Shown here: positions 11,496-39,912 of the stretch, one piece after another
How positions within the stretch are numbered: position 1 is the first letter of the stretch
Layout: every line of letters begins with the position of its first letter
NCBI GenBank assembly: GCA_041657385.1
Contig: JBBABZ010000001.1
Location: forward strand, 29,821 to 93,820
Length of the DNA: 64,000 nt
Source: Minisyncoccota bacterium
GTDB taxonomy: Bacteria > Patescibacteriota > Minisyncoccia > Minisyncoccales > JAQTVQ01
Reading direction: 5' to 3'
Notes under the pieces: model-generated
What the model was told of the DNA's origin: nothing
The model's input: the letters and a program-made list of their open reading frames with translations, nothing else
The model's database searches: none
Program-made: the position numbers and the translations under genes

Positions 11496-11529
11496 CTGCG
11501 TAAATTTTCAATTTACAATTCTCAATTTT

Positions 11530-11549: not shown

Positions 11550-11652
11550 CAATGAATGTTTCAATTTTCAAAAATTCCGTTATCGTCATTGAAGCATTGG
11601 AACATTGTAATTTCATTGGAAATTGAAAATTGTAAATTAAAAATTCACGCTT

Positions 11653-12183: not shown

Positions 12184-12184
12184 A

Positions 12185-12318: not shown

Positions 12319-12324
12319 AATACT

Positions 12325-13863: not shown

Positions 13864-13872
13864 TATCAATAT

Positions 13873-14742
13873 ATGACAAAGATCAGCCTTATTGTCGGCC
13901 AAAGCGCTTCTCTGCCAAAACAAATAATGGAAAGATATTCTCTGACCATGATCCCTTTTATTGTTGATTGGAAAGCCGATAAGGATAACCTTGACCCGAA
14001 AAGCATTTTTCAAAAAATGGCCGATGCCGAAGCTGGCAATGCAAGCGATCTTCCTAAAACATCCCATCCCGCGCCATGGCTCTTCAAGAAATTTTTTGAA
14101 GAAAAAATTACAAATTCCGATTCGGTTCTTTTTATTTCTCTAAGCTCGAAGCTGTCAGCCACTTCCGAGGCCGCCTCATTTGGAAAAGAAATGCTGAAAC
14201 CGGGAGATAAAAAAAAGGTTTTTATTTTCGATTGCCAAAATGCCAGCGCCGGAGAAGGCTTGATCGCAATTAAAGTTGCGGAGCTGATCAGTCAAGGCAG
14301 GCCGGTTGAGGAGGCTGTTAAAGAGCTGGAAATATTCAGACAAAAAGTCTGCACCTTGGCCAGCCTTAAAGATTTGAAATGGCTGGAAAAAGGAGGAAGG
14401 ATAAGCCATTTAACCAAATCAATATTATCCACTTTCCAAAAACTAGGGATCAGCCTTCTTTTCGGGATTAAAAACGGCCGCGTTGAAGCTGTTAGCTTGG
14501 GTTTTAAACAAAAAACTCAAGCCGCGGTTATTTTCGATTTTTTCAAAAAAAACTGCAAAAAGGGGAAATTCCGAATTGCCATAGCTCACGCTCAAAACGA
14601 GCAGGCCGCAGACGAACTTAAAAATTTGATCCAAAAAAAATGTCCCTCATCTGAAATAATTTTCACCGGGCCGATCGATAATATTATTGGAATACATGTC
14701 GGACCAGGCGCCCTGATTTGCGCCTGGCATCCGCTAGACTAA
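13873..14742 (+). CDS. DegV family (FakB-like) fatty-acid-binding protein
   Basis: C-terminal IIGIHVGPGALICAW, internal DLPKTSHP and FISLSSKLSATS blocks. Paralog of the ORF at 15-1079. Confidence 0.8.
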   Translation: MTKISLIVGQSASLPKQIMERYSLTMIPFIVDWKADKDNLDPKSIFQKMADAEAGNASDLPKTSHPAPWLFKKFFEEKITNSDSVLFISLSSKLSATSEAASFGKEMLKPGDKKKVFIFDCQNASAGEGLIAIKVAELISQGRPVEEAVKELEIFRQKVCTLASLKDLKWLEKGGRISHLTKSILSTFQKLGISLLFGIKNGRVEAVSLGFKQKTQAAVIFDFFKKNCKKGKFRIAIAHAQNEQAADELKNLIQKKCPSSEIIFTGPIDNIIGIHVGPGALICAWHPLD

Positions 14743-14746
14743 TACA

Positions 14747-15427
14747 ATGCCCGCTTCTTATTTTTTAATATCCCTTTTCTCTTACCTGCTCGGTTCAATA
14801 CCGGCCGCTATTTTAATTGGAAAACTTTTCACCAAGAAAAATTTTCAAGAAGAGGGAAGCGGCAATCTTGGCGCCACCAACGCTTTAAGAATCGTCAGCA
14901 AAGAAAAAGGGAAATTCTGGGGAACCGCGGCCTTTCTTGCCGTTTTTCTTTTTGACGCCAGCAAAGCAGTGGCCGCTTGTTTGATCGCAACGAACTTTAT
15001 TCCCGATCGGACCGCAGCTTTAACTCTGGCCGCCTTTTTTACCGTTCTTGGCCATAATTATTCATTGTTTTTAAAATTCCGGGGAGGGAGGGGAGCTGCT
15101 TCCTTGCTTGGCGTCCTCTTATTTTTCGATTGGCGCGTCTTTTTAGCTTGGGTTGGAACTTTTTTGGCCGTAGCCGTTATCTTTGAGGCTGTTGAAAGCA
15201 AAAAAATCGACAAAAAAATAGTGGCCAGAGCCGCTAACCGCCAAATTATCGGCCGTCTTGTTGGAGAGGTCTTAGCCCTTATTCCCATCTACCTTCTCAA
15301 TCAAACTCTTTTTTGGCCAACCCTTTTCGCTACGCCATTGATCCTTATCAAACATAAAGAAAGGGTGAAAAGACAGTTGCAAGAGATAGCTGAAAGCGTA
15401 AAGCTAAAAGCGCAAAGCGTAAAGTAA
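14747..15427 (+). CDS. plsY: Glycerol-3-phosphate acyltransferase
   Basis: LLGSIPAAILIGK and GSGNLGATNALR motifs. Polytopic membrane protein. The C-terminal tail of about 25 aa reads into the repeat element. Confidence 0.8.
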   Translation: MPASYFLISLFSYLLGSIPAAILIGKLFTKKNFQEEGSGNLGATNALRIVSKEKGKFWGTAAFLAVFLFDASKAVAACLIATNFIPDRTAALTLAAFFTVLGHNYSLFLKFRGGRGAASLLGVLLFFDWRVFLAWVGTFLAVAVIFEAVESKKIDKKIVARAANRQIIGRLVGEVLALIPIYLLNQTLFWPTLFATPLILIKHKERVKRQLQEIAESVKLKAQSVK

Positions 15428-15552
15428 CAGCGCCTGCCTGCCGGTAGGCAGGTAAAGCTAAAAGCAACGAACGGATATTTTTAGCTTTACGCTTTTGTTT
15501 TGCGCTTTTCGCTTTGCACTTTACGCTTCCTTGCTTTACGCTTCCTTACGCT
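15405..15552. repeat. Intergenic palindromic element (GCGTAAAG-unit arms) with a central GC palindrome CCTGCCTGCCGGTAGGCAGG (15433-15452)
   Basis: gcgtaaagctaaaagcgcaaagcgtaaagtaacagcg - palindrome - taaagctaaaagcaacgaacggatatttttagctttacgcttttgttttgcgcttttcgctttgcactttacgc. Confidence 0.8.
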
Positions 15553-15755: not shown

Positions 15756-16163
15756 ATGGTCTTGACTAAAAACAAAAAAAATTTCATTATCTTAGCGGGA
15801 GCCCTGTCTCTGTTTTTGTTTTCCGGAGGTGAAGCCTTAGCCGCTGGGATTGTTCCTTGCGGAGGAACGGATTGCACTCTTTGCGATCTCTTTAAAATGG
15901 TTGAGAACATCGTGAACCAGATATTTTATTATCTGGTTCCATCAATCGCCGTTTTGCTTGTTGTTTATGGCGGATTTTTATTAATTACAGCCAGGGGAGA
16001 TGGCAACTCTGAAAATGTGAAAAAAGCTAAAGCCGCTTTAACCGCTGTTGCCGTAGGGTTGCTTATAATTTACGGTTCATATATCGCTGTAAATGAAATA
16101 CTAAGAGCCGTGGGCGTAAAAACAGTCTGGCAGCAAGGGTGGTACCAAATTGATTGCCAGTAA
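15756..16163 (+). CDS. VirB2/TrbC-like pilin-domain protein (signal peptide, PCGG-C-x2-C motif, two-TM hairpin)
   Basis: Cleavable signal ending LAAG, a cysteine cluster, then TM1 LVPSIAVLLVVYGGFLLI, a basic loop and TM2 ALTAVAVGLLIIYGSY. Same architecture as the C-termini of the ORFs at 25162 and 28156. Confidence 0.45.
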   Translation: MVLTKNKKNFIILAGALSLFLFSGGEALAAGIVPCGGTDCTLCDLFKMVENIVNQIFYYLVPSIAVLLVVYGGFLLITARGDGNSENVKKAKAALTAVAVGLLIIYGSYIAVNEILRAVGVKTVWQQGWYQIDCQ

Positions 16164-23180: not shown

Positions 23181-24164
23181 TTATTTCTTAAAAGACAGGT
23201 TAGAGCCGTATTTATATTTGGCGATGGGATTGGCAGTGCCGCGGACATCGAAATGCAAATGGCAGCCGGTTACGCCGACAACCTGGCCGGTATTGCCTAT
23301 ATATCCGATCAATTGGCCCTGAGAAACATTTTCTCCTGCCAACACCAAAATTTTGGAAAGGTGGGCATAGATAGTGACAACGCTATTCGGATGGATGATA
23401 TTGACATAATTGCCGAACGGCCATTGGTTGGTGGCTATTTGGATTTTCCCGCCGGCGGCGGCAAAAACAGGGGTGCCGCATTGATTGGCAATATCAACAG
23501 CATTAAAGAAATGAAGCGTTTGCGTGATCTTTCCGGTTGTCGGGAGAATAAAGAATCCATCCGGTAAAACATTCCCAACGTTTCGGGCTAGAACCGGAGC
23601 GATGGCGGCCGTAGGAGCCGAGATCTTTCCCTCAGGGACAACTATGATGTCTCCTACCGTTAATGCGGAGTTGGCATTAAGCTGATTAAAAGCGATGATT
23701 TGATCTTGGTCTGCTTTATAGAGCTTGGCTATTTGGGAAATCGTTTCTTTGTCGTTGATAATGTGCATTACGCCCGAAGTCGGCAAAACGACCAACTTCT
23801 GTCCAGCCTTAACGGCCGATCCTTTTTTTAAGTCGTTAGCCCAAAGAATCGTCTCCAAGCTGATCTTAAACTTCTCGGCAAGGCTGGCTAGAGTGTCTCC
23901 TTCTTTTACGGTATACTGGATAATATCGCGCTCTCCTTGCTCTGCCTGGCTTATTTCTTCGCTCAAATCAGCCATGGTCGCCAATGTTTGAGGCTTTACA
24001 AAAATAGGAGAGGGCACGCTTTTTAAGCTGGTGCCCTCTAATATAACTAAATTTTGAGCTGAATCTACAGTGTTTTGAGCGCTCAAAAGCGCGCAAGTAA
24101 GGGATTTTCCAGTTGTTTTTTTAGGGTCAACGCAACTGCTGCCATCGTTAACGGTTTTTGCCAA
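23181..24164 (-). CDS. LysM-domain M23 family peptidoglycan metalloendopeptidase
   Basis: LysM (YTVKEGDTLASLAEKF) plus M23 HxH region (GNTGQVVGVTGCHLHFDV). A hydrophobic signal-anchor is encoded in frame just upstream of the listed start, so the true start is probably non-ATG and further 5'. Confidence 0.8.
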   Translation of the reverse strand: MAKTVNDGSSCVDPKKTTGKSLTCALLSAQNTVDSAQNLVILEGTSLKSVPSPIFVKPQTLATMADLSEEISQAEQGERDIIQYTVKEGDTLASLAEKFKISLETILWANDLKKGSAVKAGQKLVVLPTSGVMHIINDKETISQIAKLYKADQDQIIAFNQLNANSALTVGDIIVVPEGKISAPTAAIAPVLARNVGNVLPDGFFILPTTGKITQTLHFFNAVDIANQCGTPVFAAAGGKIQIATNQWPFGNYVNIIHPNSVVTIYAHLSKILVLAGENVSQGQLIGYIGNTGQVVGVTGCHLHFDVRGTANPIAKYKYGSNLSFKK

Positions 24165-24318: not shown

Positions 24319-25158
24319 ATGTCAAGCCAATTGTCCACAATTAAACAGACTAAGGAGCTTTTGGAAAAATACGGCTTATCCCCTAGAAAAGGGCTGGGCC
24401 AGAACTTTTTGGTAAATAAAGGAGTGGTTGAAAAATTGATCAAGGCCGGGCAGATAGAAAAAACCGACCTTGTCTTGGAAGTCGGGCCGGGCATCGGCGT
24501 TTTAACCAAAGAGCTGGCCAAAGCATCCCGAAAAGTGATCGCCGTTGAGAAAGATCCTCAAATGGTTGAAATTTTATCCAAAGAGCTAGCCGAGCTTCAA
24601 ATTGATAATGTAGAGATCGTCCAAGATGATATTATGGAATTTTTAGAAAAAGGAGGATTGGCCGGCCAAGAGTATAAGGTTGCCGGAAACATTCCTTTTT
24701 ATTTGACCGCCCATTTGATCCGCCTTCTTTTGGAAATGCCCCAGCCGCCCAAAGATATGGTTTTTGTTTTGCAAAAAGAAGTCGGCCAGCGCATCGCAAG
24801 CCTGCCGCCGAAAATGACCCTGCTCTCCGCATCGGTCCAATTTTACGCCCAGCCCAAGCTGTCCGGCTATATTAAAAGGCATTCCTTCTGGCCGGTCCCG
24901 GCCGTGGACGCGGCAATCATCAGAATCACGCCAAAAAATCCGACGCCGGAGGTTGGCCGCGATCTTTTTTTCAAAATTTTGAAAGCCGGCTTTTCCCAGC
25001 CGCGCAAACAGCTTATTAACAACTTATCAAACTCGTTAAAAACTGATAAAATAGAAATCAATAATTGGCTTTTAAAAAATAACATCCAGCCCGCCCAAAG
25101 AGCGGAAACTTTATCGATAGGGGACTGGATAAATTTAACCCAAAGCTATCATTCTTAA
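24319..25158 (+). CDS. rsmA: 16S rRNA (adenine1518/1519-N6)-dimethyltransferase
   Basis: GQNFLVN, the LEVGPGIGVLT SAM motif, and the NIPFYLT/QKEV blocks of KsgA. Confidence 0.85.
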   Translation: MSSQLSTIKQTKELLEKYGLSPRKGLGQNFLVNKGVVEKLIKAGQIEKTDLVLEVGPGIGVLTKELAKASRKVIAVEKDPQMVEILSKELAELQIDNVEIVQDDIMEFLEKGGLAGQEYKVAGNIPFYLTAHLIRLLLEMPQPPKDMVFVLQKEVGQRIASLPPKMTLLSASVQFYAQPKLSGYIKRHSFWPVPAVDAAIIRITPKNPTPEVGRDLFFKILKAGFSQPRKQLINNLSNSLKTDKIEINNWLLKNNIQPAQRAETLSIGDWINLTQSYHS

Positions 25159-25161: not shown

Positions 25162-27462
25162 ATGACCCGCCGTTCTATTTATTTCGCCGCGATAATAATC
25201 CTCTTTTTTTCTTTGGCCGGGCCATGCCTGGCTGCTTGCGGCAGCTCTTGGTACGGATGCGTAGGAGGCCACAGCAATTCCTGCTCGGACGATCTTTGGT
25301 TTTATACACAATCCTGCGGCGGATATAACGACAAAGGGCAGTGCTTGAGCTGCCTTACCAATCAAGTTTTATCACAGGACTGTTTTGAATGGGAACAATG
25401 CAGCAGCGGCGCGGCTAAATGCCAATGCTGCGGCGATTGCTTCGGCACTCCAAAAAATCCAAGATACTACGACAACCCCACTTATTCCGACCAGCCGGAC
25501 AAAAGCCAAAATTCTCAAAGCATCGATCTTCCCTTAAAGCTGGACTGGGATGACGTCCTCGGCTGGAAAGACGGCTGGACGCAAAACGGAAACAAACAAT
25601 CCTGCTCCAGAAACTGCGCGAATTCTTACCGTTTGACTATCTACGACACAAAGGCAAAAAAAGAAGTCATTAATAAAGTCTTAACAAAGTCAGAATACAA
25701 TATCCGCGAAGACAAAGGGCCCTGTTTTTTAGAATCCAGCCGCACTTATGAATGGCACGTCCAAGCCTGCTGCGATTCTAATGGAACCACTTGCGGCCCG
25801 GCCAGCAATTGGAGTTTTACCACTAGCCTAGCACCGGAATTGGATTCTCCTTACGATCCAGATTGGGCCGGCCCGGAAAAAATAGAGAATGTCGATCTTC
25901 CGGTTTCTTTGAAATGGTGCAAGATCAACGAAACCAATTCCCACGACATAAGATTCTTTCTTGTAAAAAACGGGGTGGAACAATGTCATCCAAGCCTTTT
26001 GAACGGAACCGAATGCACCACTTATCCTTTCAACTTAAAAACTCAAACCAATTCCGAAATAACGGTTTTCCAAGACACTGACCTGAATTTCTTTACTAAA
26101 AGCAGCGAATACCGCTGGGAAATTTCTTCCTGTAAAGGCTATGTAAATTCCGAATGCGAGCTTTTCGGCCAGAAATGGTCTTTTTCCACCAAGGACACCA
26201 ATTTGATTGCCGCTTCGGGCTATCTCCCTTCAAACGATCCGACAGGAGCAACCCCCATCGGCCTTCCGGTAGATTTCAGCTGGGTCAAAACACCCGGAGC
26301 CAACTCTTATATTTTTGAACTGAACCCCGTGAACATTAAAAAGACTCTCAACTCAACTGGCCTGCAAATCGACTCTCCTTCTTTACAGTTGACGTCCTCC
26401 TATAATTGGAGAGTAAAACCTTGCTGGGATTTTGAAGGAAAAGACTGCGAAGATTTCAGCCAAACTTATTATTTCACAACCACCGGCCTGCCGCCGGTTA
26501 ATATCAATGTCGACGCCGTATCGTTTCCGGTTGAGATCGATTGGGGTAATGTCAGCGGAGCGTCTTCTTACTATTATCAGCTAGCTTCGGATGCCGGCTT
26601 TCAAAATATCATTGAAGGAAAGGATGCCAGCCAAAACAAAATAAGTTTTGATTATACTAAGATCAAACAGGAAACCGATTATTGGTTCCGCTTAAAAACC
26701 TGCGCCCATCAAAACGGAGAGCTCTGCGGCGATTGGAGCCAGACAAAAAACTTTAAAACGATCAAACTGGCATCCCCCGCAAACATTAAACCTCAAAATG
26801 GCTCCGTTCTTTCGACGAGCCAAGCGCAAACCTTTTCCTGGAACCCGGTTCCGGCCGCGAAGTATTATAAATATTCTTTAAAATACGCCGAGATGGCTGC
26901 CGAAGAAACCAATGAAAAATGCCCAGCCCTGCTTAACCAACTCCAAGAAAAAATTACAGCCAACACAAATGCCATAGAGATCATGGACTGCAAAGGAAAA
27001 TACCAGCTTCAAGCTCAAGCCTGTATGGAAGCAGATTGCAAGGCCGAGACATCGGGCAGCTGGTCTGCGGTGCAAGAGTTTAGTATAAAATCAGGAGTCG
27101 CTTCAAAAGACCTCCAAGGCAAGGGATTCATCCCTTGCGGCTTGTCAGCCGATGATCCAACAACCCCTTGGGACGAAAGCCAAAGATGCGAGATAAAACA
27201 CTTGTTCATTCTATTGAATATGATCATAAATTTCTTGATGTGGACGCTCGTGCCGATCGTCCTTCTCTTCTTGATGCTGGCTTCCGGAGCGATCTTTTAT
27301 TTCTCGATGGGCAGGGAAGACCCCTTGCCGCGGATCAAGTCTTTATGGAAAGCCGCCGGCATCGGCCTTGGCATTATTTTCTTATCTTGGTTCATTATCA
27401 ATATCAGCTTGTCATTGGTCGGATTTAAATTCGGCGCCTTTGGCAAATGGTGGAATTTTTAA
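25162..27462 (+). CDS. Secreted cysteine-rich protein with about 5 Fn3-like repeats fused to a C-terminal VirB2/TrbC-like two-TM pilin hairpin
   Basis: Signal peptide ending CLAAC and many paired cysteines. Repeated modules each end in W-x-F-(S/T)-T (NWSFTT, KWSFST, TYYFTT, KNFKT, QEFSI). C-terminus IPCG...C then two TM helices, homologous to the ORF at 15756. Confidence 0.5.
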   Translation: MTRRSIYFAAIIILFFSLAGPCLAACGSSWYGCVGGHSNSCSDDLWFYTQSCGGYNDKGQCLSCLTNQVLSQDCFEWEQCSSGAAKCQCCGDCFGTPKNPRYYDNPTYSDQPDKSQNSQSIDLPLKLDWDDVLGWKDGWTQNGNKQSCSRNCANSYRLTIYDTKAKKEVINKVLTKSEYNIREDKGPCFLESSRTYEWHVQACCDSNGTTCGPASNWSFTTSLAPELDSPYDPDWAGPEKIENVDLPVSLKWCKINETNSHDIRFFLVKNGVEQCHPSLLNGTECTTYPFNLKTQTNSEITVFQDTDLNFFTKSSEYRWEISSCKGYVNSECELFGQKWSFSTKDTNLIAASGYLPSNDPTGATPIGLPVDFSWVKTPGANSYIFELNPVNIKKTLNSTGLQIDSPSLQLTSSYNWRVKPCWDFEGKDCEDFSQTYYFTTTGLPPVNINVDAVSFPVEIDWGNVSGASSYYYQLASDAGFQNIIEGKDASQNKISFDYTKIKQETDYWFRLKTCAHQNGELCGDWSQTKNFKTIKLASPANIKPQNGSVLSTSQAQTFSWNPVPAAKYYKYSLKYAEMAAEETNEKCPALLNQLQEKITANTNAIEIMDCKGKYQLQAQACMEADCKAETSGSWSAVQEFSIKSGVASKDLQGKGFIPCGLSADDPTTPWDESQRCEIKHLFILLNMIINFLMWTLVPIVLLFLMLASGAIFYFSMGREDPLPRIKSLWKAAGIGLGIIFLSWFIINISLSLVGFKFGAFGKWWNF

Positions 27463-27466: not shown

Positions 27467-28135
27467 ATGCCTAAACTTAAAATAACATTTCTAATTTTTA
27501 TAGGCCTTATGGCTGTTCTTTTGGTTTCCAATTGGGCGTCAACGAGCTATCTGAAAAATCAAATAAAAAAAATCCAGCCGCAAAACGGCGAGGATCAAAC
27601 TTCTTCCGCAAGCAGCACGCCTCTTTCGATCGAAGAGATTATCAAAGAGAGCAGCTATAAAACCCTTAAAACAGCTGACCAAAAATTATCGATCAAGTGC
27701 CCGATCGATTGGGTTGAAATAGGGGAAGAAAAAATATTAAAATATTTCGACGCTGAAACGGTCAGCCGATATCAGATAAAAATTCCTTTGGCCGCTGTAA
27801 AAAAAGACGGGGCCCAGCTGATGGTCACGGAAATTTTTATGGACTCGACCAGCACTCTCAAAGACGCTCTGTCTGCAAACGAAGAAATATACAAAAAAAC
27901 AGGGCAAGATGTTAATATTTTGTTGCAAAGCGAAAAAGAAAAAGAGCTGTATTTTGAAGCCGAATATACCCAAAAAGAGGAAAAAATGACCAGCCAGGAA
28001 AAAATATTGGAAACTGCGGACGATCAAGAAAAAAAACATTTTTACATTGTTTCGGTTGTCGTTCCAAGCGATCTGTCAAAAAATTATCAAGAAACAGGAA
28101 GCGAGATGCTAAGCTCTATTCAAATTAATAATTAA
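27467..28135 (+). CDS. Membrane-anchored hypothetical protein (size and topology compatible with a VirB8-like T4SS component)
   Basis: Single N-terminal TM (ITFLIFIGLMAVLLV) followed by a soluble domain of about 190 aa. Start taken at the ATG at 27467, after the upstream gene's stop. Confidence 0.4.
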   Translation: MPKLKITFLIFIGLMAVLLVSNWASTSYLKNQIKKIQPQNGEDQTSSASSTPLSIEEIIKESSYKTLKTADQKLSIKCPIDWVEIGEEKILKYFDAETVSRYQIKIPLAAVKKDGAQLMVTEIFMDSTSTLKDALSANEEIYKKTGQDVNILLQSEKEKELYFEAEYTQKEEKMTSQEKILETADDQEKKHFYIVSVVVPSDLSKNYQETGSEMLSSIQINN

Positions 28136-28155: not shown

Positions 28156-29142
28156 ATGAAAATAGCAAAAAAAATTATTTTTTCTTTAATGGTTTTGGGC
28201 CTACTGGCCCCTTTAAAAATTTTTGCGCTGGAAATAGATTGGCCGGCTTCTCCGGCTGGCACAAATCTGTCAGATCAAAGCACTCTCACAGAGCTGACCA
28301 AATACTCTTACGAATGGGCGATAACACTGGGCATCTTGGCTTTTTTTGTTTCAATAGTTATTAACGGAGTTAAGTATATGACCTCAACCGGTGATCCCGG
28401 CAAAACTGCGAATGTGCGCAAAAGAATACAATCCTCGGCCGCGGGACTGGGCTTACTTCTTGGCTCTTGGATCCTTTTAAACTTCTTGAACCCAAGATTA
28501 ACCACTCTTTTTATTCCTGATCCAAACCAAGATTTAGCCACGCAAATGATTGAATATGAAGACTTCAGCAAACTTAAAGAAAACTCCTGCGATCTTATAA
28601 TTATTTATCCTAAAAAAAATTACGAAGAAGATAGTAACTTTGATCCACCAAAAGAAGTTCTTTATAACAGCGCAAAATCTCCCATAGATTTCAAAGTAAG
28701 TTTTTTTCCTCATTCTTTAAAAGTGTTGAAACAAATTAAAGGAGACGAACAATTAGTCTTAATGGACCAAGCAAACAGGCTGATCAGGGAAGAAAATGAA
28801 AAAATCAGAAAAGCAAATGAAGAAATGGTAAGATCGGGAGTTCAGGGGCCACCACAAGTGGAAAAACCGGAAAAAACTTTAAACGAGGCCATAAAAGAAA
28901 AATACGGTTCTGACCCTTTTCCTTATAGTGGGGGGCTTTTTGTTGATGCCCCTCCTGGCTGTGTTGCATACTTCTACAGAAAAGACCCTAAATATTTGTC
29001 GACGAGCATCTTTGGAACAGAGGATGTTCTAGCTTTTCAAATGTATGGCAGTAATCCTGATTTTAATACTCTTTATTCTGAAAACGAACTGAATCAGATT
29101 AAAAAATTCAGAGTGGTTATCCCTGGTACTGTGAGTGAGTAA
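28156..29142 (+). CDS. VirB2/TrbC-like pilin-domain protein with a C-terminal extension of about 200 aa
   Basis: Signal peptide, then YEWAITLGILAFFVSIVINGV - basic loop - AAGLGLLLGSWILLNF two-TM hairpin. Paralog of the 15756 ORF and of the 25162 C-terminus. Confidence 0.45.
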   Translation: MKIAKKIIFSLMVLGLLAPLKIFALEIDWPASPAGTNLSDQSTLTELTKYSYEWAITLGILAFFVSIVINGVKYMTSTGDPGKTANVRKRIQSSAAGLGLLLGSWILLNFLNPRLTTLFIPDPNQDLATQMIEYEDFSKLKENSCDLIIIYPKKNYEEDSNFDPPKEVLYNSAKSPIDFKVSFFPHSLKVLKQIKGDEQLVLMDQANRLIREENEKIRKANEEMVRSGVQGPPQVEKPEKTLNEAIKEKYGSDPFPYSGGLFVDAPPGCVAYFYRKDPKYLSTSIFGTEDVLAFQMYGSNPDFNTLYSENELNQIKKFRVVIPGTVSE

Positions 29143-29186: not shown

Positions 29187-31409
29187 ATGATCCCAAAAAA
29201 ATATTATTATTTTCTCGCAATTTTCATCGCTTTTTTTGGCTTGTTTTTTGTTGTAAAAACAGCTTCCGCCGGCGGGATACCTTTTATTTCAGAGCTTCCC
29301 TCCAGTGAAGGATTTTTAAGCTCAATCGAAGAAATAGCCGGCCCCATCCTGCAAGAAGCAATAGGTCTTTTTACTGCGATCATCAAAGCCTTTGTAATGG
29401 TTTTTGTATCCGCCCATCTCTTGGATTGGGCGATGACCCAGCCCATAGGCCTTGATGATAAACTCGTGACAACAGGCTGGGCCTTTACTTTAGCTCTGAC
29501 AAATTTGATCTTTATTTTTATCATCCTTTATATCGCCATAAAGCAGATCGTCAGCGACGAAGGAGATATGAACTCTATTAAAAAATACCTTCCCAGATTA
29601 ATAACCACTATTCTACTGGTAAATTTTGGCGTGGTTTTTATAAAAATGGCGATCGATATCGCCTTTATTTTGCAAAGGAGCATGGTTCCCTCTGATTCAA
29701 GCCTGGCTTTTAACAGCCTATCCGGATTGGAACAACAGATTAGCGGGATTTTAATAAGTTATGGACTCTACTTTGGCGCAGGGATTCTTGCTTCTTTCCT
29801 GCCGTCAGCCGCAGCTGTCTGGCAAGGATTAGCCTGGCCGACATATATTTTAATGGCGCCGGCAAGGATCAGCGCCGAGATCCAAATTTATGTTTGCAAC
29901 ACTTTGGCAGGCATTTATTTTCTTTATGCCTTATATTTTATAATAAGGATCTATGTAATTAAAATTTTAACCATAATTTTCCCTTTAGCTTTTGCCTGTT
30001 ACGCCATCCCAAGCGAAGGCGCCCAAAAATTATGGAAACAATGGTCTAACTTTTTTATCACTTGGGTCTTTTTCCCTATACCCTTGCTCTTTTTCCTGGT
30101 CCTCGGGCTTAAATTGCTTCAAGACATAATGCCGGCTGGAATGGCTGCAATGGCAACCCCCCTTGCTTTCTGGCAAATAGCTACAAATGGAAATTTGCTC
30201 AGCCCAGCTGTAAACTACTATATCGCCCTTATCGCTTACCTTGCCACTTTAGCTTATCTGAAAGTTAAATTTTCGCCAAGCCTCGATATTGGAGGAATAA
30301 AGGGAGGGGCACTGATAGACAAGGGGAAAAACTTTGTTCTTAACAGGGCTAAACAATCCTTCGCCGGGGCCGCTGTCAACCAGCGGGCAAGAGAAAAAAC
30401 CGTACAGGCAGAAGAAGCAAGCGGCAAAAAATCAGGATGGATGAAAAGAACGGGGATGATGGCCGGCTCTCTTGCTGCGGGAGTGGTAGAAAATGAATTT
30501 AGAAGCTCCGGAACTACTTCCAACATAGAGCTTGCCAAGGCTATTAAAGAAAAAAAAGAAGAATACAAAAAACAATTCGGAGAAGATATGGAAAGCGCCT
30601 CAAAATTTTTCAACGACCCTTCGTCAGCTCCGAAGACAGATCTCGAAAAAAGAGCTTTTTCTTCATACCTTGTTGATAATGCCAAAAGCGGCGAAGACTT
30701 AAAAAAGGCTTTGGACGGCGGCGGATTTTTAAAGAGATCTTTTAAGATAGAAAATCTCAAAGAAAGAAAAGCCAGAGTAACGATGAAAGTGGAGGACCTG
30801 CTCAAGGCCTCGGACGAAAAAACCGCAGATGCCTTAAAAAGGAGTATGATCGGCGAAACAGTTGTTGAATCAAAATTGTGGAATTTGACCGGCGGCAGCA
30901 AAGATATCAAGTCAAAATTCACACTCGCTGAAGAAGAGGTTAAAAAGGTCGTTGGAGGAGCCAAAAGCGAGGAAGACATGAAGCAGTTTATCCCAGGCTT
31001 TGAAAAAGACCCAGCCGCTCTTGAAAAAATAATGGAATTTGACGTTGAACAGCTTACGGCGCTAGCGAAAACCCATCGCTCCGCGCTTAAAGAATATGTC
31101 AAAAAGGTCAATGAAAAAGGCGTTGAAGATTTTGCAAAAGACCACGCCAGCCAGATGATGTTTATAGTTGGAACCGCCGGCCAAGCCGTCTTGCGGGATA
31201 AAGACAACAATGTCCTTGATAAAAAAGCGATTCAAGAAATGATAAGCGGAGTTAAAAAACACCAAGAGGACCCACCTATAGCTGGGTTTGCGCCAGAGAA
31301 AAAAGAGGCCTCGCCCGAACCTCCCAAAACGACAGAAGAAAAGGTAGAAGGGACGGGGGGCAGAAAATCTACAGCCGAAAGGATAAACGAAAAAAGAAAT
31401 AAGGGATAA
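29187..31409 (+). CDS. VirB6/TrbL-like polytopic membrane protein with a long K/E-rich C-terminal domain
   Basis: Signal peptide, 7 or more predicted TM helices over the first 360 aa or so, then a hydrophilic tail of about 380 aa. Confidence 0.5.
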   Translation: MIPKKYYYFLAIFIAFFGLFFVVKTASAGGIPFISELPSSEGFLSSIEEIAGPILQEAIGLFTAIIKAFVMVFVSAHLLDWAMTQPIGLDDKLVTTGWAFTLALTNLIFIFIILYIAIKQIVSDEGDMNSIKKYLPRLITTILLVNFGVVFIKMAIDIAFILQRSMVPSDSSLAFNSLSGLEQQISGILISYGLYFGAGILASFLPSAAAVWQGLAWPTYILMAPARISAEIQIYVCNTLAGIYFLYALYFIIRIYVIKILTIIFPLAFACYAIPSEGAQKLWKQWSNFFITWVFFPIPLLFFLVLGLKLLQDIMPAGMAAMATPLAFWQIATNGNLLSPAVNYYIALIAYLATLAYLKVKFSPSLDIGGIKGGALIDKGKNFVLNRAKQSFAGAAVNQRAREKTVQAEEASGKKSGWMKRTGMMAGSLAAGVVENEFRSSGTTSNIELAKAIKEKKEEYKKQFGEDMESASKFFNDPSSAPKTDLEKRAFSSYLVDNAKSGEDLKKALDGGGFLKRSFKIENLKERKARVTMKVEDLLKASDEKTADALKRSMIGETVVESKLWNLTGGSKDIKSKFTLAEEEVKKVVGGAKSEEDMKQFIPGFEKDPAALEKIMEFDVEQLTALAKTHRSALKEYVKKVNEKGVEDFAKDHASQMMFIVGTAGQAVLRDKDNNVLDKKAIQEMISGVKKHQEDPPIAGFAPEKKEASPEPPKTTEEKVEGTGGRKSTAERINEKRNKG

Positions 31410-33327: not shown

Positions 33328-33744
33328 ATGCAATTCCAAGTTCCTCAATTCATAGAACACGAAGCAAAAATTTTAGGACCCCTGACTTTCAGGCAGACTA
33401 TTTTTATGGGCATTGCCGCCATGGTCTGCTTTATGCTTTATTTTGCTTTTGGCAAAACTAATTTCTTTTTATTCATCTTGTCATCTATCTTGATCGTAGG
33501 AGGAACGGCAGCTCTGGCTTTTGTCAAAATTAGCGGGCAGACCTTATCTTTGATCGTAAAAAATTTTTTCATTTTCAGCCTAGCCCCGAAACTCTATCTT
33601 TGGAAAAGGAAGGAGACTGCGGTATATTTTGAAAAATCTCCAATTAAGCCCGTTGGAAAAGAAGAGCCGAAAAACTCTCCGCTTAAAATAGTGAAAGGCA
33701 GCAATATAAAAGATTTAAGTAAAAAATTGGATTTCGGCGGATAA
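33328..33744 (+). CDS. PrgI/VirB3-like small two-TM membrane protein
   Basis: 138 aa with two adjacent TM helices (FMGIAAMVCFMLYFAF, FFLFILSSILIVGGTAALAF). Lies immediately upstream of the VirB4-like gene, as in Gram-positive T4SS. Confidence 0.45.
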   Translation: MQFQVPQFIEHEAKILGPLTFRQTIFMGIAAMVCFMLYFAFGKTNFFLFILSSILIVGGTAALAFVKISGQTLSLIVKNFFIFSLAPKLYLWKRKETAVYFEKSPIKPVGKEEPKNSPLKIVKGSNIKDLSKKLDFGG

Positions 33745-33751: not shown

Positions 33752-34393
33752 ATGGCAAAGATCGCAACCCAACAATTTCTTCCCATCGACCAAATCAGAG
33801 AAGGAGTACTGCTCTTAAAAGACAGATCTATGAGGGGGGTCATTATGATCTCTTCTTTGAATTTCGCCTTGAAATCGGAAGATGAACAAACGGCCATCAT
33901 CTACCAATTCCAAAATTTCCTAAATTCTCTGGATTTTTCCTGCCAAATAATCGCTCAATCTCGAAAATTAAACATAACCGGATACCTCGAAAAGCTCAAA
34001 GAGATAGAAAAGGCCCAGCAAAACGAACTTCTCAAAACGCAGACGGCTGAATATCGCAAATTCATTGAACAAATAATAAGCGGGGGATCGATCATGTCAA
34101 AAAGTTTTTATACCGTTGTCCCTTATTATCCTTTAATAGATATTCCTGGAGCTCCTGGAGCAAAACAAAAAAAAGATGCCAGCAGGGCTAGTTTGACCGA
34201 AGAAAAATTCCAGCGCGGAAAATATCAGTTATGGCAAAGGATGGAATATGTTGTTTTGGGGTTAAGGCGCTGCGGCTTAAGAGGAAGCCCTCTCAACACC
34301 CCTGAACTGATCGAATTGCTTTGGGCCCATCATCATCCAAAAGAAGCAGAATCCGGATATTATCCTGAATTGCCCCCGGAAATGTTAATTTAA
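33752..34393 (+). CDS. VirB4/TrbE-like protein, N-terminal fragment (split gene or frameshift)
   Basis: Resembles the CagE/TrbE/VirB N-terminal domain (LPIDQIREGVLLLKDRSMRGVIMISS...). Ends 24 bp before the ATPase ORF, which is in a different frame. Confidence 0.45.
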   Translation: MAKIATQQFLPIDQIREGVLLLKDRSMRGVIMISSLNFALKSEDEQTAIIYQFQNFLNSLDFSCQIIAQSRKLNITGYLEKLKEIEKAQQNELLKTQTAEYRKFIEQIISGGSIMSKSFYTVVPYYPLIDIPGAPGAKQKKDASRASLTEEKFQRGKYQLWQRMEYVVLGLRRCGLRGSPLNTPELIELLWAHHHPKEAESGYYPELPPEMLI

Positions 34394-34416: not shown

Positions 34417-36186
34417 ATGAATTTTCTTAAAAAAGGTGAACGGGAGAAATTTTTTGAAGCGGAAAAGATGGACGCAAAAGACATCATCGCCCCCGCCTCG
34501 ATCGAGATCAAACAAAGCAATATAAAGTTAGGCGAAAAATTAGCTAAAACCTACTTTGTTTTTTCCTATCCAAGATACCTTACTACCGGCTGGCTTTCCC
34601 CGATCATTAATTTAGATATTCCCCTGGATATCTCTTTCTTTTTTCATCCAGTGGAAACCGGCGATGTCTTAAAAAAAATGCGTCGCAAAGTTACCGAAAT
34701 ACAGGCCGAACTTTTAGAGAGGGAAGAAAAAGGGTTGGTTCGCGATCCTTCGCTCGAAACCGCTTACAATGACTTGGAGAACCTGCGCGACAGCCTCCAA
34801 ACCGCGCAAGAAAAAATGTTTAAATTTGGATTATATATTACCGTCTACGCCGACACCGAAGCCCAGCTCACAGATGTTGAGACGACCCTAAGATCAGTGC
34901 TTGAATCGCGTTTGATCTATCTAAAGCCGGCTCTCTGCCAGCAAAAAGAAGGATTTATCTCTGTCTCGCCATACGCTATAGACCAATTGCAAGTCCACAC
35001 CAGCATCAATACCGGCCCATTGTCTTCTGTTTTTCCTTTTGTTTCTTTTGACCTTAGCTCTAATGAAGGAATTTTGTACGGCATGAATAAGCATAATAAT
35101 TCCCTGGTTCTGTTCGACCGCTTTACCCTGGAAAACGCCAATATGGTCATTTTCGCCAAATCCGGATCAGGAAAATCTTACGCGGTCAAACTAGAGGTAT
35201 TGCGATCTTTAATGATGGGAGTGGAAGGGATTATCGTTGACCCGGAAAACGAATATGAAATGCTTTCCGATTCGGTTGGAGGCTCCTTTTTTAAAATCTC
35301 TTTAAGCTCGGATGATCATATCAATCCTTTTGATCTGCCGATCCCCCGCGAAGATGAAAAAGCGGAAGATGTTTTAAGGTCAAACATCATCAACCTTGTT
35401 GGGCTTATCAGGATCATGCTTGGAGGGCTGAACCCGGAGGAGGATGCGATCATCGACCGCGCGCTGGCTGAAACTTATGCCGCCAAAGATATCACGCCGG
35501 ATTCCGACCAATCAAAATGGAAAGAGAATACCCCGATCTTATCGGATTTGGAATCAGTTTTGGAAACAATGCAAGGAGCGGAATCACTGGTCCAAAGAAT
35601 AAGAAAATTCACTCGCGGAACATTTTCTTCTTTCTTTAATCAGCAATCCAATATTTCTATGGATAAACAGTTGGTTGTTTTCGGGATCAGAGATATGGAA
35701 GACGAGTTAAGGCCGATGGCAATGTTTATTATTATGCGCTATATTTGGAACGAGATCCGATCCGAATTGAAAAAAAGGATATTAGTGATCGATGAGGCTT
35801 GGTGGCTGATGCAGTCCGAAGACGGAGCCTCTTTCTTATATGGCATGGCCAAGCGCGCCCGCAAATATTGGCTGGGAGTAACCACTATCACTCAAGATGT
35901 TTCCGATTTTATGAAATCTTCCTATGGCAAACCGATCATCACTAATTCCTCTCTCCAGCTTCTTCTCAAACAGAGCCCAGCTACTGTTGATATTCTTCAG
36001 CAAACTTTTAACCTGACCGACCAAGAAAAATTTTTACTGCTTGAAACGCCGATAGGAGAGGGAATTTTTTTCGCCGGACAAAAACATGTATCTATTAAAA
36101 TAGTCGCTTCTTATACAGAGGACCAGATTATAACCTCCAGTCCAGAGCAAATCTTAAAGATCAAAGAAGCTAAAAAAAATATCTGA
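34417..36186 (+). CDS. VirB4/TrbE-like T4SS ATPase (central and C-terminal part)
   Basis: Walker A in MVIFAKSGSGKSY and the RKYW...TQDVSDF C-terminal blocks typical of VirB4-family ATPases. Confidence 0.75.
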   Translation: MNFLKKGEREKFFEAEKMDAKDIIAPASIEIKQSNIKLGEKLAKTYFVFSYPRYLTTGWLSPIINLDIPLDISFFFHPVETGDVLKKMRRKVTEIQAELLEREEKGLVRDPSLETAYNDLENLRDSLQTAQEKMFKFGLYITVYADTEAQLTDVETTLRSVLESRLIYLKPALCQQKEGFISVSPYAIDQLQVHTSINTGPLSSVFPFVSFDLSSNEGILYGMNKHNNSLVLFDRFTLENANMVIFAKSGSGKSYAVKLEVLRSLMMGVEGIIVDPENEYEMLSDSVGGSFFKISLSSDDHINPFDLPIPREDEKAEDVLRSNIINLVGLIRIMLGGLNPEEDAIIDRALAETYAAKDITPDSDQSKWKENTPILSDLESVLETMQGAESLVQRIRKFTRGTFSSFFNQQSNISMDKQLVVFGIRDMEDELRPMAMFIIMRYIWNEIRSELKKRILVIDEAWWLMQSEDGASFLYGMAKRARKYWLGVTTITQDVSDFMKSSYGKPIITNSSLQLLLKQSPATVDILQQTFNLTDQEKFLLLETPIGEGIFFAGQKHVSIKIVASYTEDQIITSSPEQILKIKEAKKNI

Positions 36187-36303: not shown

Positions 36304-36747
36304 TTAAACTGGTCTGACCACGATTCTCCTCTCTGGATTTTCTCCCACGCTTTCTGTTTTTATATCGGTTCGGTTGGCCAGCTCCATATGGACTATGCGG
36401 CGGTCAAAAGCGGAAAGGGGAGGCATCAACTTTTCTCTCTTAGATGAAGCCACTTCATCCGCCGCGGTTCGAGCAATGTCTTTTAAATAATCTATTTTCC
36501 TTTTTTTGTAATCTTCTATATCTAAATTTAAAAATATTTCTTCTTTTAAGGCTTTTTTAATGATCTTGGCTAAAAGATGCTGAAGGTCGGCCAATGTTTG
36601 GCCGTTTTGCCCGATCAAGATCCTGGCTTCCTCCGATTTTAGGCCAATATTCAAAACTCCGTCTTTTAAAGAAACTTCCGCGGACACAAGGCAATCCATT
36701 TTTTCAAAAAAAGTTCTTACTATTTCTTCTGAAATTTTTATGTCCAT
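36304..36747 (-). CDS. jag: Jag/KhpB-like RNA-binding protein (KH plus R3H domains)
   Basis: KH-like segment and a C-terminal R3H segment (SAFDRRIVHMELANRTDIKTESVGE). Conserved position downstream of yidC. Confidence 0.75.
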   Translation of the reverse strand: MDIKISEEIVRTFFEKMDCLVSAEVSLKDGVLNIGLKSEEARILIGQNGQTLADLQHLLAKIIKKALKEEIFLNLDIEDYKKRKIDYLKDIARTAADEVASSKREKLMPPLSAFDRRIVHMELANRTDIKTESVGENPERRIVVRPV

Positions 36748-36748
36748 T

Positions 36749-37474
36749 TTATTGAACTGTTTTTTTATTAAAAACCAAATAATTTTGGCCGATGGAAAGA
36801 ACCGTGTTCACCAGCCAATAAAGCCCTAAGCCGGATGGAAGGGAGGCTAATATCATTATAGTCATAATGGGGAAGAAATAAAGGATATATTTTTGCATCA
36901 TAGAAGAGAACTGGCCCATTTGGTCGCCGCTAACCGGTTTTGGAGGATTGGCTGGCAGGCTGGTTTTAGTTTGAAAGTATTGCGCAATGCCGACTACAAC
37001 CGCAAGAAAAATATTAGCCTTGGAAAGATCCATGCCTAAGAACATCTGGTTTATCTCTTGAGGCCTCGGCACGAAAGAGTACAAAAGATCTAAATGGCTT
37101 TGGCCTATTCCAGTTTGGAATATTTGATAGAGCGCTATAAAAATCGGCAGTTGGATCAAAAGGGGTAAAAATCCGGCAAAGGGATTGAACTTTTTTTCTT
37201 TGTAAAGCTTCATCATCTCCTCTGCCTGTTTTTGCTTGTCATCCTTGTATTTTTTTTGGAGATCGTTTATCTTCGGCTGCAACTCATTCATTGTTTTCTG
37301 GGACTTTAAAGATTGCTGGGTGGAAGGGAAAAGGACTATTTTAAGCAATAAAGTGATCAAAATGATCGCGATTCCTAAATTTTGGCCGGGGATAAAAACA
37401 TAAAGAGCTATTAAAAGATTGACCAGCGGCTGATAGAAAAAAAGATGAAAAAAATTGCCGATAAACTGAAACAT
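36749..37474 (-). CDS. yidC: Membrane protein insertase YidC (short form)
   Basis: LLKIVLFPST, QPKINDLQKKYKDDKQK and NPFAGFLPLLIQLPIFIALY blocks. Lies in the rnpA-yidC-jag arrangement. Confidence 0.85.
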   Translation of the reverse strand: MFQFIGNFFHLFFYQPLVNLLIALYVFIPGQNLGIAIILITLLLKIVLFPSTQQSLKSQKTMNELQPKINDLQKKYKDDKQKQAEEMMKLYKEKKFNPFAGFLPLLIQLPIFIALYQIFQTGIGQSHLDLLYSFVPRPQEINQMFLGMDLSKANIFLAVVVGIAQYFQTKTSLPANPPKPVSGDQMGQFSSMMQKYILYFFPIMTIMILASLPSGLGLYWLVNTVLSIGQNYLVFNKKTVQ

Positions 37475-37477
37475 AGG

Positions 37478-37822
37478 TTATTTTTTTAAAAAACTGATTT
37501 TTTGAAGGCTGCTTTCTATGATAGAAAGCTTTTCTTGATACCCTTCGTTTTTTATAAGGGGCCAGGCTATAAAAACCAGATCATATCCCTTCTTTATTTT
37601 ATTAATGTTTTTCCAAATAATTTCTCTTATTTGGCGCTTGATCTTGTTGCGGTCAACCGCTTTTTTCGCCGTCTTCTTACTGACGATTATCCCAAAACGG
37701 CTCTGGGGAAGATTATTTTCAACGGTTTTTAAAAAAAGGGTTTTTTGTTTAAACCCTTTTCCTTGTTTCAAAACTTTTTCAAAGTCCCTCTTTTTTACTA
37801 GCCTGTTCTCTTTCGGCAGCAT
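37478..37822 (-). CDS. rnpA: Ribonuclease P protein component
   Basis: 114 aa, basic. FGIIVSKKTAKKAVDRNKIKRQIRE block. Position between rpmH and yidC. Confidence 0.8.
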   Translation of the reverse strand: MLPKENRLVKKRDFEKVLKQGKGFKQKTLFLKTVENNLPQSRFGIIVSKKTAKKAVDRNKIKRQIREIIWKNINKIKKGYDLVFIAWPLIKNEGYQEKLSIIESSLQKISFLKK

Positions 37823-37875
37823 ATTGAGTCTTTTTGGCTTTGACTAAAATTAAAACCGCCTTGATAAAAAAGATC

Positions 37876-38010
37876 CTAGACGGTTAATTGCCAGCGGCCC
37901 TTTTGTCTTCTTCTTGCTAAAGTCCTTTGGCCTCCTTTGGTGTTTTTTCTAGCCAAAAATCCATGGGTCCTTGCTCTTTTTTTCTTTTTGGGATTATAGG
38001 TTACGCTCAT
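37876..38010 (-). CDS. rpmH: 50S ribosomal protein L34
   Basis: Translated by hand from the minus strand as [44 protein letters not shown]. Not in the ORF track (44 aa). Confidence 0.8.
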
Positions 38011-38274
38011 GCACCTAAATATAGCAAAAATTGGGTTTTTGTCAATTTGTTTTTACCAGAGAAAAGATAATAACAGTTTTTCCACAGCTCTTGCACAGAA
38101 ATTTAAAAAACATAAAGAATGCCTCATTCTTTACTTATCCACAGCTTATGCTCTATAATAATTTCACCCGCTAAAAGTTTCATTTTTTGCTGAAATATCT
38201 TCTAAAAATCATCCCAGCGATTAGCCGATCCTAAAAATTAACAGGTAACTTCATTTAAGATTTAAGGCAAATCT
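38011..38274. promoter_or_regulatory. dnaA upstream region with DnaA boxes (ori-associated)
   Basis: TTATCCACA in cttacttatccacagctt (about 38137) and the near-box TTTTCCACA (about 38085). AT-rich context. Confidence 0.5.
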
Positions 38275-39639
38275 ATGACATACCAAGAACTCTGGCAAAC
38301 CGTATTGGCGCAAATCCAGCTTAATATTTCTCCTGCTAATTTCGCGACGTGGTTCGCAAGCACCAAGATCGCTTCCCAGGAAGAGGGGATGATAATCGTT
38401 TCTGTGCCAAACTCCTTTGCCAAAGAATGGCTGGAGCAAAAATACAACAAAGAGATCTTAAAAATATTAAGGGCCTTAGATTCAAGCATTAAAGAAATAA
38501 GCTATCAAATAGATTTTCCGGCGGTAAAAATAAAGGAGCTAGTAAAGCAGCCCGAGCCCCAAGAACTTCCAATGGAGCAGCTCGGGTTTGCCGAGCTGGA
38601 AACAGATAAAGAAACAAACCTTAATCCAAAATATAATTTTCAAAATTTTATAGTCGGACCCTTTAATGAATTGGCATATGCCGCAGCCAAAGCTATTGTT
38701 AAGGAGCCTGGAAAGGTTTATAACCCGCTGTTTATTTACGGCGGGGTAGGATTGGGAAAAACCCATTTATTACAAGCTGTCGGGAACGAGCTGTCTAAAA
38801 AAAATCCGCCGTGCAAGGTTAAATACGTCCCGTCCGACAAATTGATCTCCGCTATCGTTAGTTCTATCCGAAACAATAGCATTGAAGATTTAAAAGCCAG
38901 CTTAAGAAAGGTTGATGTTTTAATAGTAGATGATGTCCAATTTTTTGCCGGAAAAGAAAAAACCCAAGAAGAATTTTTCCACACGTTTAACGATCTCTAC
39001 CAAAGAGGAAAACAAATAATCCTTTCTTCCGACCGCCCTCCTAAAGCCATCCCGGCGATCACGGAAAGATTAAAATCAAGATTTGAGGGGGGGATGGTGG
39101 CCGATGTCAGCCTGCCGGATTACGAAACAAGGCTGGCTATTTTAAAGCAAAAAACAGTGGAAAAAAACGCTGAAGTCCCGGAAAAGGCCTTGGAATATAT
39201 CGCGGCTAATATCCAAAAAAACGTCAGAGAGATTGAAAGCGCTTTGAATAGGCTTTTGATTTTTCAAAAGATAAACAATAAGGTTCCCAGTTTTGAAGAA
39301 GCAAAAAAACTTTTAAGGAATATTATTGTTTCTCCGTCTAAATTCACCAATCCAACCCATATACTCCAAACCATAAGCGAATTTTACGACCTTGACGACA
39401 AAAATTTATTTTATTCTTCCCGCAAAAAAGAGTTTGTTAAACCTCGCCAACTGGCTATGTATTTATTGAGAAAAGAATTAAGCTTCTCTTTTCCGGCTAT
39501 CGGCCGAAAATTCGGAGGAAAAGACCACACAACTGTAATGCATGCCTGCCAATTAATAGACCGCGAAATACAAGAAAGTGAAAAATTTTCCCAGGAAGTT
39601 GATTTGATCCTGCAAAAAATTTACACGCTGGACGCATAG
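38275..39639 (+). CDS. dnaA: Chromosomal replication initiator protein DnaA
   Basis: Walker A GGVGLGKTHL, VLIVDDVQF, and a C-terminal DNA-binding domain (KDHTTVMHA). Confidence 0.95.
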   Translation: MTYQELWQTVLAQIQLNISPANFATWFASTKIASQEEGMIIVSVPNSFAKEWLEQKYNKEILKILRALDSSIKEISYQIDFPAVKIKELVKQPEPQELPMEQLGFAELETDKETNLNPKYNFQNFIVGPFNELAYAAAKAIVKEPGKVYNPLFIYGGVGLGKTHLLQAVGNELSKKNPPCKVKYVPSDKLISAIVSSIRNNSIEDLKASLRKVDVLIVDDVQFFAGKEKTQEEFFHTFNDLYQRGKQIILSSDRPPKAIPAITERLKSRFEGGMVADVSLPDYETRLAILKQKTVEKNAEVPEKALEYIAANIQKNVREIESALNRLLIFQKINNKVPSFEEAKKLLRNIIVSPSKFTNPTHILQTISEFYDLDDKNLFYSSRKKEFVKPRQLAMYLLRKELSFSFPAIGRKFGGKDHTTVMHACQLIDREIQESEKFSQEVDLILQKIYTLDA

Positions 39640-39912
39640 TTATTTTTAAAAAACTGTGGATTATTTGTTAAGAAAACATTCATAACTCATTGTGAGAAAT
39701 AGGGGATAAAAAGGGCTTATTTTTTTTCTAAATTATCACCTCGATTTCTATCCATTAATTCAACACGGCTTCCCACTTATTTTTCCACCATCTATCCATA
39801 AATATTTTTTACCATAAGGCTTTCAAAGATTGGATTTCCAGATATTATCCACAGAAAAAAAGCTCAATATAATAACAATAAATAAAATAAATTTTTAATA
39901 AATTATTATATT
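39640..39912. promoter_or_regulatory. Probable oriC: DnaA-box cluster plus an AT-rich unwinding element between dnaA and dnaN
   Basis: Boxes tgtggatta (reverse orientation), ttatccaca at about 39845, and near-boxes ctatccat/tttccacc/ctatccata. These are followed by aataaataaaataaatttttaataaattattatatt. Confidence 0.6.

Follow-up and report, generated by a model that had tools for sequence, protein, structure and literature searches.

Patescibacteria are known to encode type IV secretion systems (T4SSs) with VirB2-like pilins, which has been seen as remarkable for monoderms (PMC10633639, PMC12102498, PMC12857230). In Southlakia epibionticum, a Saccharibacterium and the sole Patescibacterium to have been genetically tested, epibiotic growth requires the T4SS and pilin genes (PMC10633639). 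A census of 3,035 Patescibacteria genomes, run at i-Evalue < 0.001 and > 50% profile coverage, found no PrgB-like adhesin and detected no adhesins (PMC12102498). We analyzed a 64,000-nucleotide stretch of a Minisyncoccota bacterium genome (contig JBBABZ010000001.1, positions 29,821 to 93,820; hereafter the window, in whose numbering all coordinates are given) and found that the gene at 25162..27462 encodes a 766-amino-acid (aa) protein whose C-terminal ~112 aa form, judged by sequence comparison, an entire pilin body of the T4SS_pilin type found in Patescibacteria. The census would have missed this pilin, because its score falls below those thresholds. We favor, with modest confidence, the reading that it is a minority subunit of the pilin pathway, presenting a fast-evolving head on an Fn3 rod for target-cell contact.

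Like the Patescibacteria VirB2-like pilins (PF18895), the protein combines a signal peptide with a two-helix hairpin, and its gene lies in a T4SS cluster of the monoderm type close to the origin, together with VirB4, PrgI and TrsD and several divergent pilin paralogues per locus. Unlike the small forms that have been described, it adds about 630 predicted extracellular residues, comprising a Cys-rich head and five Fn3-like domains. The parts, Fn3 modules and a pilin hairpin, are ordinary; their combination is unusual. The Patescibacteria VirB2-like kind of pilin is already known, whereas for the cargo-bearing form we found no describing paper: the searchable literature yielded none on a pilin-Fn3 fusion or a cargo-bearing T4SS pilin in the candidate phyla radiation (CPR), which is not proof of absence. 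In contrast to canonical VirB2/TrbC proteins (A. tumefaciens VirB2, R388 TrwL, PF04956), to which it shows no significant direct sequence or Foldseek match, the 766-aa pilin comes from a monoderm, and it has a head motif bridged by cysteines as well as a large folded extension at its N-terminus, which, to our knowledge, is not known from any characterized VirB2-family pilin.

The proposed target-contact role likens the protein to the VirB5/CagL tip adhesins and the PrgB surface adhesins. However, it has no homology to VirB5, a helical bundle, or to the LPXTG-anchored PrgB, and those are separate proteins whereas the 766-aa form is a pilin fusion. A pilin module joined to a receptor-binding module, with a variable binding part, is known from FimH of the chaperone-usher pathway and from type IV minor pilins bearing bulky additional domains, such as CofB and R64 PilV. 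By analogy, the 766-aa pilin may follow the same design principle with unrelated folds and assembly machines, since the pilin modules of those proteins are Ig-like or of the type-IV-pilin fold and not VirB2-like hairpins.

The open reading frame (ORF) and its signal peptide are as stated in an earlier note on this DNA, and the parts of the protein, from N- to C-terminus, are as follows.

25162..27462, + strand: whole gene including the stop codon, cargo-bearing T4SS pilin of 766 aa (ORF with ATG start)
25162..25236, + strand: signal peptide, aa 1-25, MTRR plus hydrophobic core plus PCLAA before C (hydrophobic segment 4-30, sequence reading)
25237..25449, + strand: distal Cys-rich head, aa 26-96, the fastest-diverging region (AlphaFold2 (AF2) beta strands, predicted local distance difference test (pLDDT) 76-91)
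25450..25512, + strand: conserved linker, aa 97-117, P-x-NPRYYDNPTYSDQPDK (identity among homologues)
25513..25833, + strand: Fn3-like module 1, aa 118-224 (profile-profile comparison, AF2, Foldseek)
25879..26199, + strand: Fn3-like module 2, aa 240-346, the most variable module (profile-profile comparison, AF2, identity)
26239..26487, + strand: Fn3-like module 3, aa 360-442 (profile-profile comparison, AF2)
26509..26769, + strand: Fn3-like module 4, aa 450-536 (profile-profile comparison, AF2; Pfam Ig_Rha78A_N 27.2 bits, cut-off 27.4)
26779..27099, + strand: Fn3-like module 5, aa 540-646 (profile-profile comparison, AF2)
27124..27462, + strand: pilin body, aa 655-766, with the two-helix hairpin (BLASTP, hidden Markov model (HMM), AF2, hhalign)

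With ~630 aa between signal peptide and pilin body, the protein has the proposed design of a pilin with a large N-terminal insertion. Hydrophobic segments lie at residues 4-30, 678-718 and 728-757. The AF2 model, built on an alignment of homologues, is confident (mean pLDDT 82.5), with modules folded as beta-sandwiches and two long helices after them. There are 34 cysteines in total (4.4%), 13 of them within residues 22-93. A public record of the identical protein, found on 3 contigs from several sources, is named 'MAG: pilin [Candidatus Paceibacterota bacterium]'.

The pilin body consists of a GFIPCG-x15-C-xxx-H head motif, a helix (678-714), the loop GREDPLPRIKS, a second helix (722-752) and an aromatic tail, FGKWWNF. 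The two AF2 helices fit the layout of the T4SS_pilin type, a signal peptide plus a terminal hairpin of two transmembrane segments. Two further pilins in the window served for comparison.

15756..16163, + strand: small stand-alone pilin of 135 aa, a candidate for the major pilin (26.6 bits against T4SS_pilin, exactly at the cut-off; 22.4 bits against TrbC, cut-off 27.9)
28156..29142, + strand: 328-aa pilin, the second extended form (T4SS_pilin domain spanning aa 41-111, E 4e-9)

The homology to the small pilin at 15756, which had been proposed from the letters alone, proved significant. BLASTP with the last 116 aa gave 40.8 bits (E 2e-10), aligning the (I/V)PCG...C head as well as the helices. 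The Smith-Waterman score was 97, against 26.7 ± 4.6 for shuffled sequences and 30.7 ± 6.5 when shuffling was done in blocks with the hydrophobic segments kept, and none of the 2000 shuffles in either test reached it. Moreover, an HMM of the family C-terminus detected the small pilin at E 1.4e-11 and ORF 28156 at 3e-4, and among 515 window ORFs it matched no membrane protein other than these two. The similarity to ORF 28156, which the earlier note had also named for alignment, is present but weaker (BLASTP E 0.002).

We then searched exhaustively with the 116-aa C-terminus and obtained 1,300 representative proteins at E <= 1e-3, 337 of them at E <= 1e-10. Each of the best 150 relatives matched at its extreme C-terminus. 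Complete stand-alone pilins among the matches (P0134, P0164, P0167 and P0201, 142-158 aa), each a signal peptide, a GLVPCG..NE..C..KH head and a hairpin, are 38-46% identical to the pilin body, and cargo-free and cargo-bearing relatives have identical invariant residues in common. Membership of the T4SS_pilin family is supported transitively and not directly, because the cut-off is passed by relatives whose copy of the domain is 42-52% identical (P0083, 27.3 bits; P0089, 26.7 bits; P0110, 27.5 bits) and the small pilin, matched at E 2e-10, scores exactly 26.6.

The pilin body may be remotely VirB2/TrbC-like, but its link to the canonical proteins is weak. A Pfam scan of the 766-aa protein gave no PF04956 (VirB2/TrbC) match, and hhalign against 8 annotated VirB2/TrbC proteins returned a weak hit (score 28.4, probability 42%, P 2.7e-4) whose 59 columns are in register over the whole hairpin; controls scored 9.0 when reversed and 12.6 ± 2.2 (maximum 19.5) over 60 block-column shuffles. 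Sequence searches of the PDB, run for the entire protein and separately for the head, the small pilin and the pilin-body profile, returned no solved pilin and nothing useful, Foldseek with the hairpin returned generic hairpins and no solved pilin, and an NCBIfam scan of the 766-aa protein had no match.

These data bear on whether the C-terminal similarity could be a compositional resemblance of hydrophobic hairpins, or the gene a chimera, in which case the product would be an unrelated Fn3 surface protein. The direct Pfam T4SS_pilin E-value of only 0.083 and the generic hairpins from the fold searches agree with such a resemblance. However, block shuffles never reached the observed score (0/2000 and 0/60), the soluble PCG...C head aligns too, and the family HMM matches no non-pilin membrane protein in the window. 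A chimeric assembly, a worry the earlier note had raised for 27150-27200, is ruled out by about 70 full-length homologues from independent metagenome assemblies (30-69% identity), as the fusion is kept in all homologues aligned; the occurrence of the identical protein on several contigs likewise argues against it. We regard this explanation as effectively refuted and grant it next to no probability.

Across the family, conservation is highest in the pilin head, at 61% mean pairwise identity, and in the helices, at 51%, both above any Fn3 module. Because the pilin body is more conserved than the Fn3 modules and shares invariant residues with cargo-free pilins, it probably makes specific protein contacts, which argues that it touches other subunits or the machine and is more than a mere anchor. 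The main rival takes the opposite position: the protein would be a fixed surface fibril, anchored in the membrane and docked at the T4SS, with the hairpin only an anchor or a docking module at the T4SS base and a rod that spans the wall or S-layer to display the head, the protein never being extracted into a filament. This fits the two strong transmembrane helices with N-out topology, the ~20 nm length of the Fn3 rod in the AF2 model, which is about the thickness of the envelope, the lack of any observed T4SS pilus in Patescibacteria, and the surface adhesins that monoderm T4SSs normally carry instead of pili (PMC12102498). Nevertheless, simple anchors would not keep an extracellular head at this level of identity together with helix residues shared with stand-alone pilins. 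Stand-alone versions of exactly the same domain exist, and the domain is always extreme C-terminal with a conserved aromatic tail. We consider the anchored fibril rather unlikely.

Under the favored reading, the 766-aa protein is a minority subunit; a further rival makes it the major pilin. The best 150 relatives of the pilin body are 129-1,668 aa long, and extended forms outnumber short ones among them. If every subunit carried an Fn3 array, the result would be a thick bottle-brush filament or sheath. The abundance of extended forms is in keeping with this, as is the gene's place as the first of its operon, universally conserved in these clusters. The surface available per subunit of an F- or T-pilus is about one Fn3 domain cross-section, which might just leave room for radial display. 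Against a major-pilin role, a small cargo-free pilin is kept next to rpsO, and its small size and location fit the major subunit better; 766 aa with 34 Cys per subunit would be costly for a reduced genome, and there is no known precedent. We therefore judge this arrangement quite improbable and retain the minority-subunit reading.

We characterized the N-terminal cargo by Pfam scans of 45 relatives (10 + 35). Peptidase_M23, a peptidoglycan endopeptidase domain, lies near the N-terminus in 5 of the 35, including P0182 and P0091 (1032 aa each); such relatives amount to a cell-wall hydrolase tethered to a T4SS pilin. Other cargo comprised one to several Rha78A-like Ig/Fn3 domains, PKD domains, a ConA-like lectin, an ALK-type glycine-rich domain, an InlB B-repeat and a beta-helix with DUF5123, and two homologues have a C39-like peptidase domain. 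Tentatively, Patescibacteria may have turned a VirB2-type pilin into a modular display scaffold, with a conserved C-terminal body and interchangeable N-terminal cargo, so that the T4SS filament or stalk itself would be the organelle of host recognition and cell-wall breaching. If true, it would make this protein the first of the VirB2-family pilins to bear large folded domains outside the cell, and it would supply the adhesin reported missing from Patescibacteria T4SSs.

To compare the repeats, the five modules were cut from an alignment of 22 homologues and compared profile against profile, with the head and pilin part as controls. All ten module pairs were homologous (probability 96-99.5%, E 7e-9 to 4.5e-23), whereas neither control matched anything. 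Cys pairs near the module ends (C203/204-C211, C324-C332, C421-C429, C514-C522 and C621-C626) are kept family-wide, in line with the at least five tandem modules with paired cysteines read earlier from the sequence. The W-x-F-(S/T)-T strand said to end every module did not hold up: it occurs literally in modules 1 and 2 only (NWSFTT, KWSFST), and modules 3, 4 and 5 end in YYFTTT, KNFKT and QEFSI. Structure prediction supported the Fn3-like assignment, with AF2 beta-sandwiches at pLDDT of about 85-95 within modules and Foldseek matches in the PDB to tandem Fn3 arrays (gp130, fibronectin, contactins and the GhpA grappling hook) at E down to 2e-16. No Pfam fn3-type HMM exceeded its cut-off in the 766-aa protein, Ig_Rha78A_N alone being near threshold; homologue P0030 is recorded with PF00041 and several homologues with PF25788. 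Neither tandem nor dispersed DNA repeats were found in the gene, and a recent DNA-level repeat expansion was rejected. A diversity-generating retroelement acting on the gene was likewise discarded, as there is no sign of one in the gene and no reverse transcriptase among the large window ORFs scanned.

Variability of the repeats among related genomes had been suggested as a check. Module 2 varies, with 33% mean pairwise identity among homologues, and in 4 of 5 close pairs the head has the lowest identity of the mature-protein regions. With the nearest homologue at just 69% identity, synonymous sites are saturated. Among homologues, the head has 34% mean pairwise identity and a length of 14-102 aa. 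It holds 12 of the 34 Cys within aa 26-96; Cys22 lies within the signal peptide. The linkers next to these domains are better conserved than the domains they connect: aa 97-117 has 52% mean identity (81-90% in close pairs), and aa 225-239 (25834-25878, APE(L/P)xSPYDPDW) has 63%. This suggests a specific role for the linkers, for example as a processing site, a wall or S-layer contact or rigid joints.

The N-terminus, MTRRSIYFAAIIILFFSLAGPCLAAC, is a Sec-type signal, with the cleavage site placed by inference between PCLAA and C. LAAC is compatible with a lipobox; however, the motif is not kept in homologues, and since even a 69%-identical homologue does not have it, lipoprotein anchoring by this route is unlikely.

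The genes around the 766-aa pilin gene are as follows.

23181..24164, - strand: LysM + M23 peptidase, candidate VirB1-like cell-wall hydrolase (conserved neighbor)
24319..25158, + strand: ksgA/rsmA, upstream neighbor (stop codon 3 nt before the pilin start)
27467..28135, + strand: 222-aa membrane-anchored protein, function not assigned (ATG 5 nt after the pilin stop)
29187..31409, + strand: polytopic membrane protein (7 hydrophobic segments and a hydrophilic tail of ~400 aa; no Pfam match)
33328..33744, + strand: PrgI, VirB3-like
33752..34393, + strand: TrsD/TraC-like protein before VirB4 (PF26593 on homologues 60-67% identical)
34417..36186, + strand: VirB4-type ATPase (TraG P-loop, E 1.6e-24; CagE_TrbE_VirB)

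PrgI and VirB4 thus lie 6-7 kb downstream of the pilin gene on the same strand. The order M23/LysM (minus strand), ksgA, pilin, extended pilin, polytopic protein, PrgI, TrsD-like protein, VirB4 recurred in 9 of 9 independent CPR contigs, namely those long enough to show gene order (identity 31-42%), including Parcubacteria DG_74_1 and DG_74_3, Nealsonbacteria and Paceibacterota metagenome-assembled genomes; ksgA is present in seven of these loci and was not detected in two. The pilin gene is the conserved first gene of the T4SS cluster in all 9 contigs, which bears out its proposed T4SS membership. As only 3 nt separate the end of ksgA from the start of the pilin gene, the two are probably co-transcribed. 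A gene of similar size to the 222-aa one (216-226 aa) follows the pilin in syntenic loci L001-L003. Homologues of ORF 28156 (248-363 aa) are present in the syntenic loci; with its N-terminal pilin domain and ~215-aa C-terminal extension, this ORF is a mirror image of the 766-aa protein. The polytopic protein is VirB6-like by position and topology only. An opposite-strand SPFH gene lies between it and a 166-aa ORF, which is on the same strand as the pilin gene and precedes PrgI. M23/LysM VirB1 homologues have been associated with virB4 in Paceibacteria (PMC12102498).

The cluster adjoins jag and yidC (minus strand) and then dnaA and dnaN (window 36304-41058), which presumably places it directly beside the replication origin; Patescibacteria T4SSs have been placed near the origin before (PMC12102498). 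The position of the small pilin gene upstream of rpsO is conserved. Among the window ORFs scanned there was neither a relaxase nor a VirD4-type coupling protein, and conjugative DNA transfer was accordingly rejected as the role of the system, in agreement with PMC12102498.

The architecture and T4SS membership set out in the earlier note hold, and its adhesin role and pilus display are plausible, so that its interpretation is partly supported. Domain type, position, head variability, the cargo of relatives and analogy together suggest the adhesin role, and the 766-aa pilin is the best candidate for the host-contacting part of the T4SS. We infer cleavage, topology, disulfides, polymerization, minor-subunit status and binding along the following route. 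The N-terminus would be exported by Sec and the signal peptide removed, after which the C-terminal hairpin would insert N-out/C-out with its basic loop in the cytoplasm. The basic residues are R718, R724, K726 and K730, and since the positive-inside rule puts this loop in the cytoplasm, as for VirB2, the ~630-aa extension and both termini are predicted to be outside. There the Fn3 modules would fold, stapled by disulfides, and five of them at ~4 nm each would form the rod. The VirB4/PrgI/TrsD/polytopic machine would handle the pilin body like the cargo-free pilins, so that the protein enters a pilus or stalk as a minor component, alongside the small pilin encoded next to rpsO, which would supply the bulk of the subunits. 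Kept at a distance from the cell, the head would then recognize a structure on the host or target surface and bring the T4SS into contact.

Several observations weigh against this proposal. A T4SS pilus has not been seen in any Patescibacterium by experiment or image, and for the phylum only a 'potential to elaborate conjugative pili' has been stated (PMC12857230); polymerization is our proposal here. The direct PF18895 T4SS_pilin score is 13.4 bits (E 0.083, aa 684-747), below the curated cut-off of 26.6. Co-polymerization with the small pilin is not self-evident, because that protein is only 26% identical and its head is different and shorter. The head (aa 26-117) had no relative in PDB, Pfam or NCBIfam searches and no recognizable binding fold, and in 1 of 5 close pairs it is the most conserved region. 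Finally, Fn3 arrays are generic spacers.

Other features of the window were also recorded. Long imperfect intergenic palindromes occur at 4606-4689, 5839-5954, 7466-7548, 15393-15528, 50855-50970 and 57461-57587, built of AAAGCG/AAAGYG-like units. Their left arm is reverse-complementary to their right arm; three copies form hairpins 120-140 nt long (z-scores -4.6 to -6.8 versus shuffles), and one copy lies between plsY and the small pilin gene. These palindromes may be REP-like or terminator-like elements. Lipid-metabolism genes (15-1079 and 5962-15427) encode a FabZ-FabK-like fusion, a second FabK-like protein, biotin carboxylase, carboxyltransferase and PlsY, and the same run has two DegV proteins, one (15-1079) with FakA-like segments. 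The run is notable because Patescibacteria are generally described as being without fatty-acid synthesis (PMC10633639). A T2SSE-family (PilB/PilT-like) ATPase (47863-49158, - strand) adjoins an unannotated 375-aa ORF (49196-50323) and is flanked by ruvB, ruvC, yebC and a gene for a lamin-tail-domain protein; the window ORFs scanned contained no further recognizable type IV pilus genes.

The operon-leading, conserved pilin, with its rigid Fn3 stalk and fast-evolving Cys-rich head, provides a concrete candidate for host recognition in Paceibacteria. It also shows that HMM-threshold surveys undercount pilins in the phylum. Furthermore, it bears on decorated filaments in monoderm CPR T4SSs, on host range and on the pilin-borne delivery of cell-wall hydrolases.

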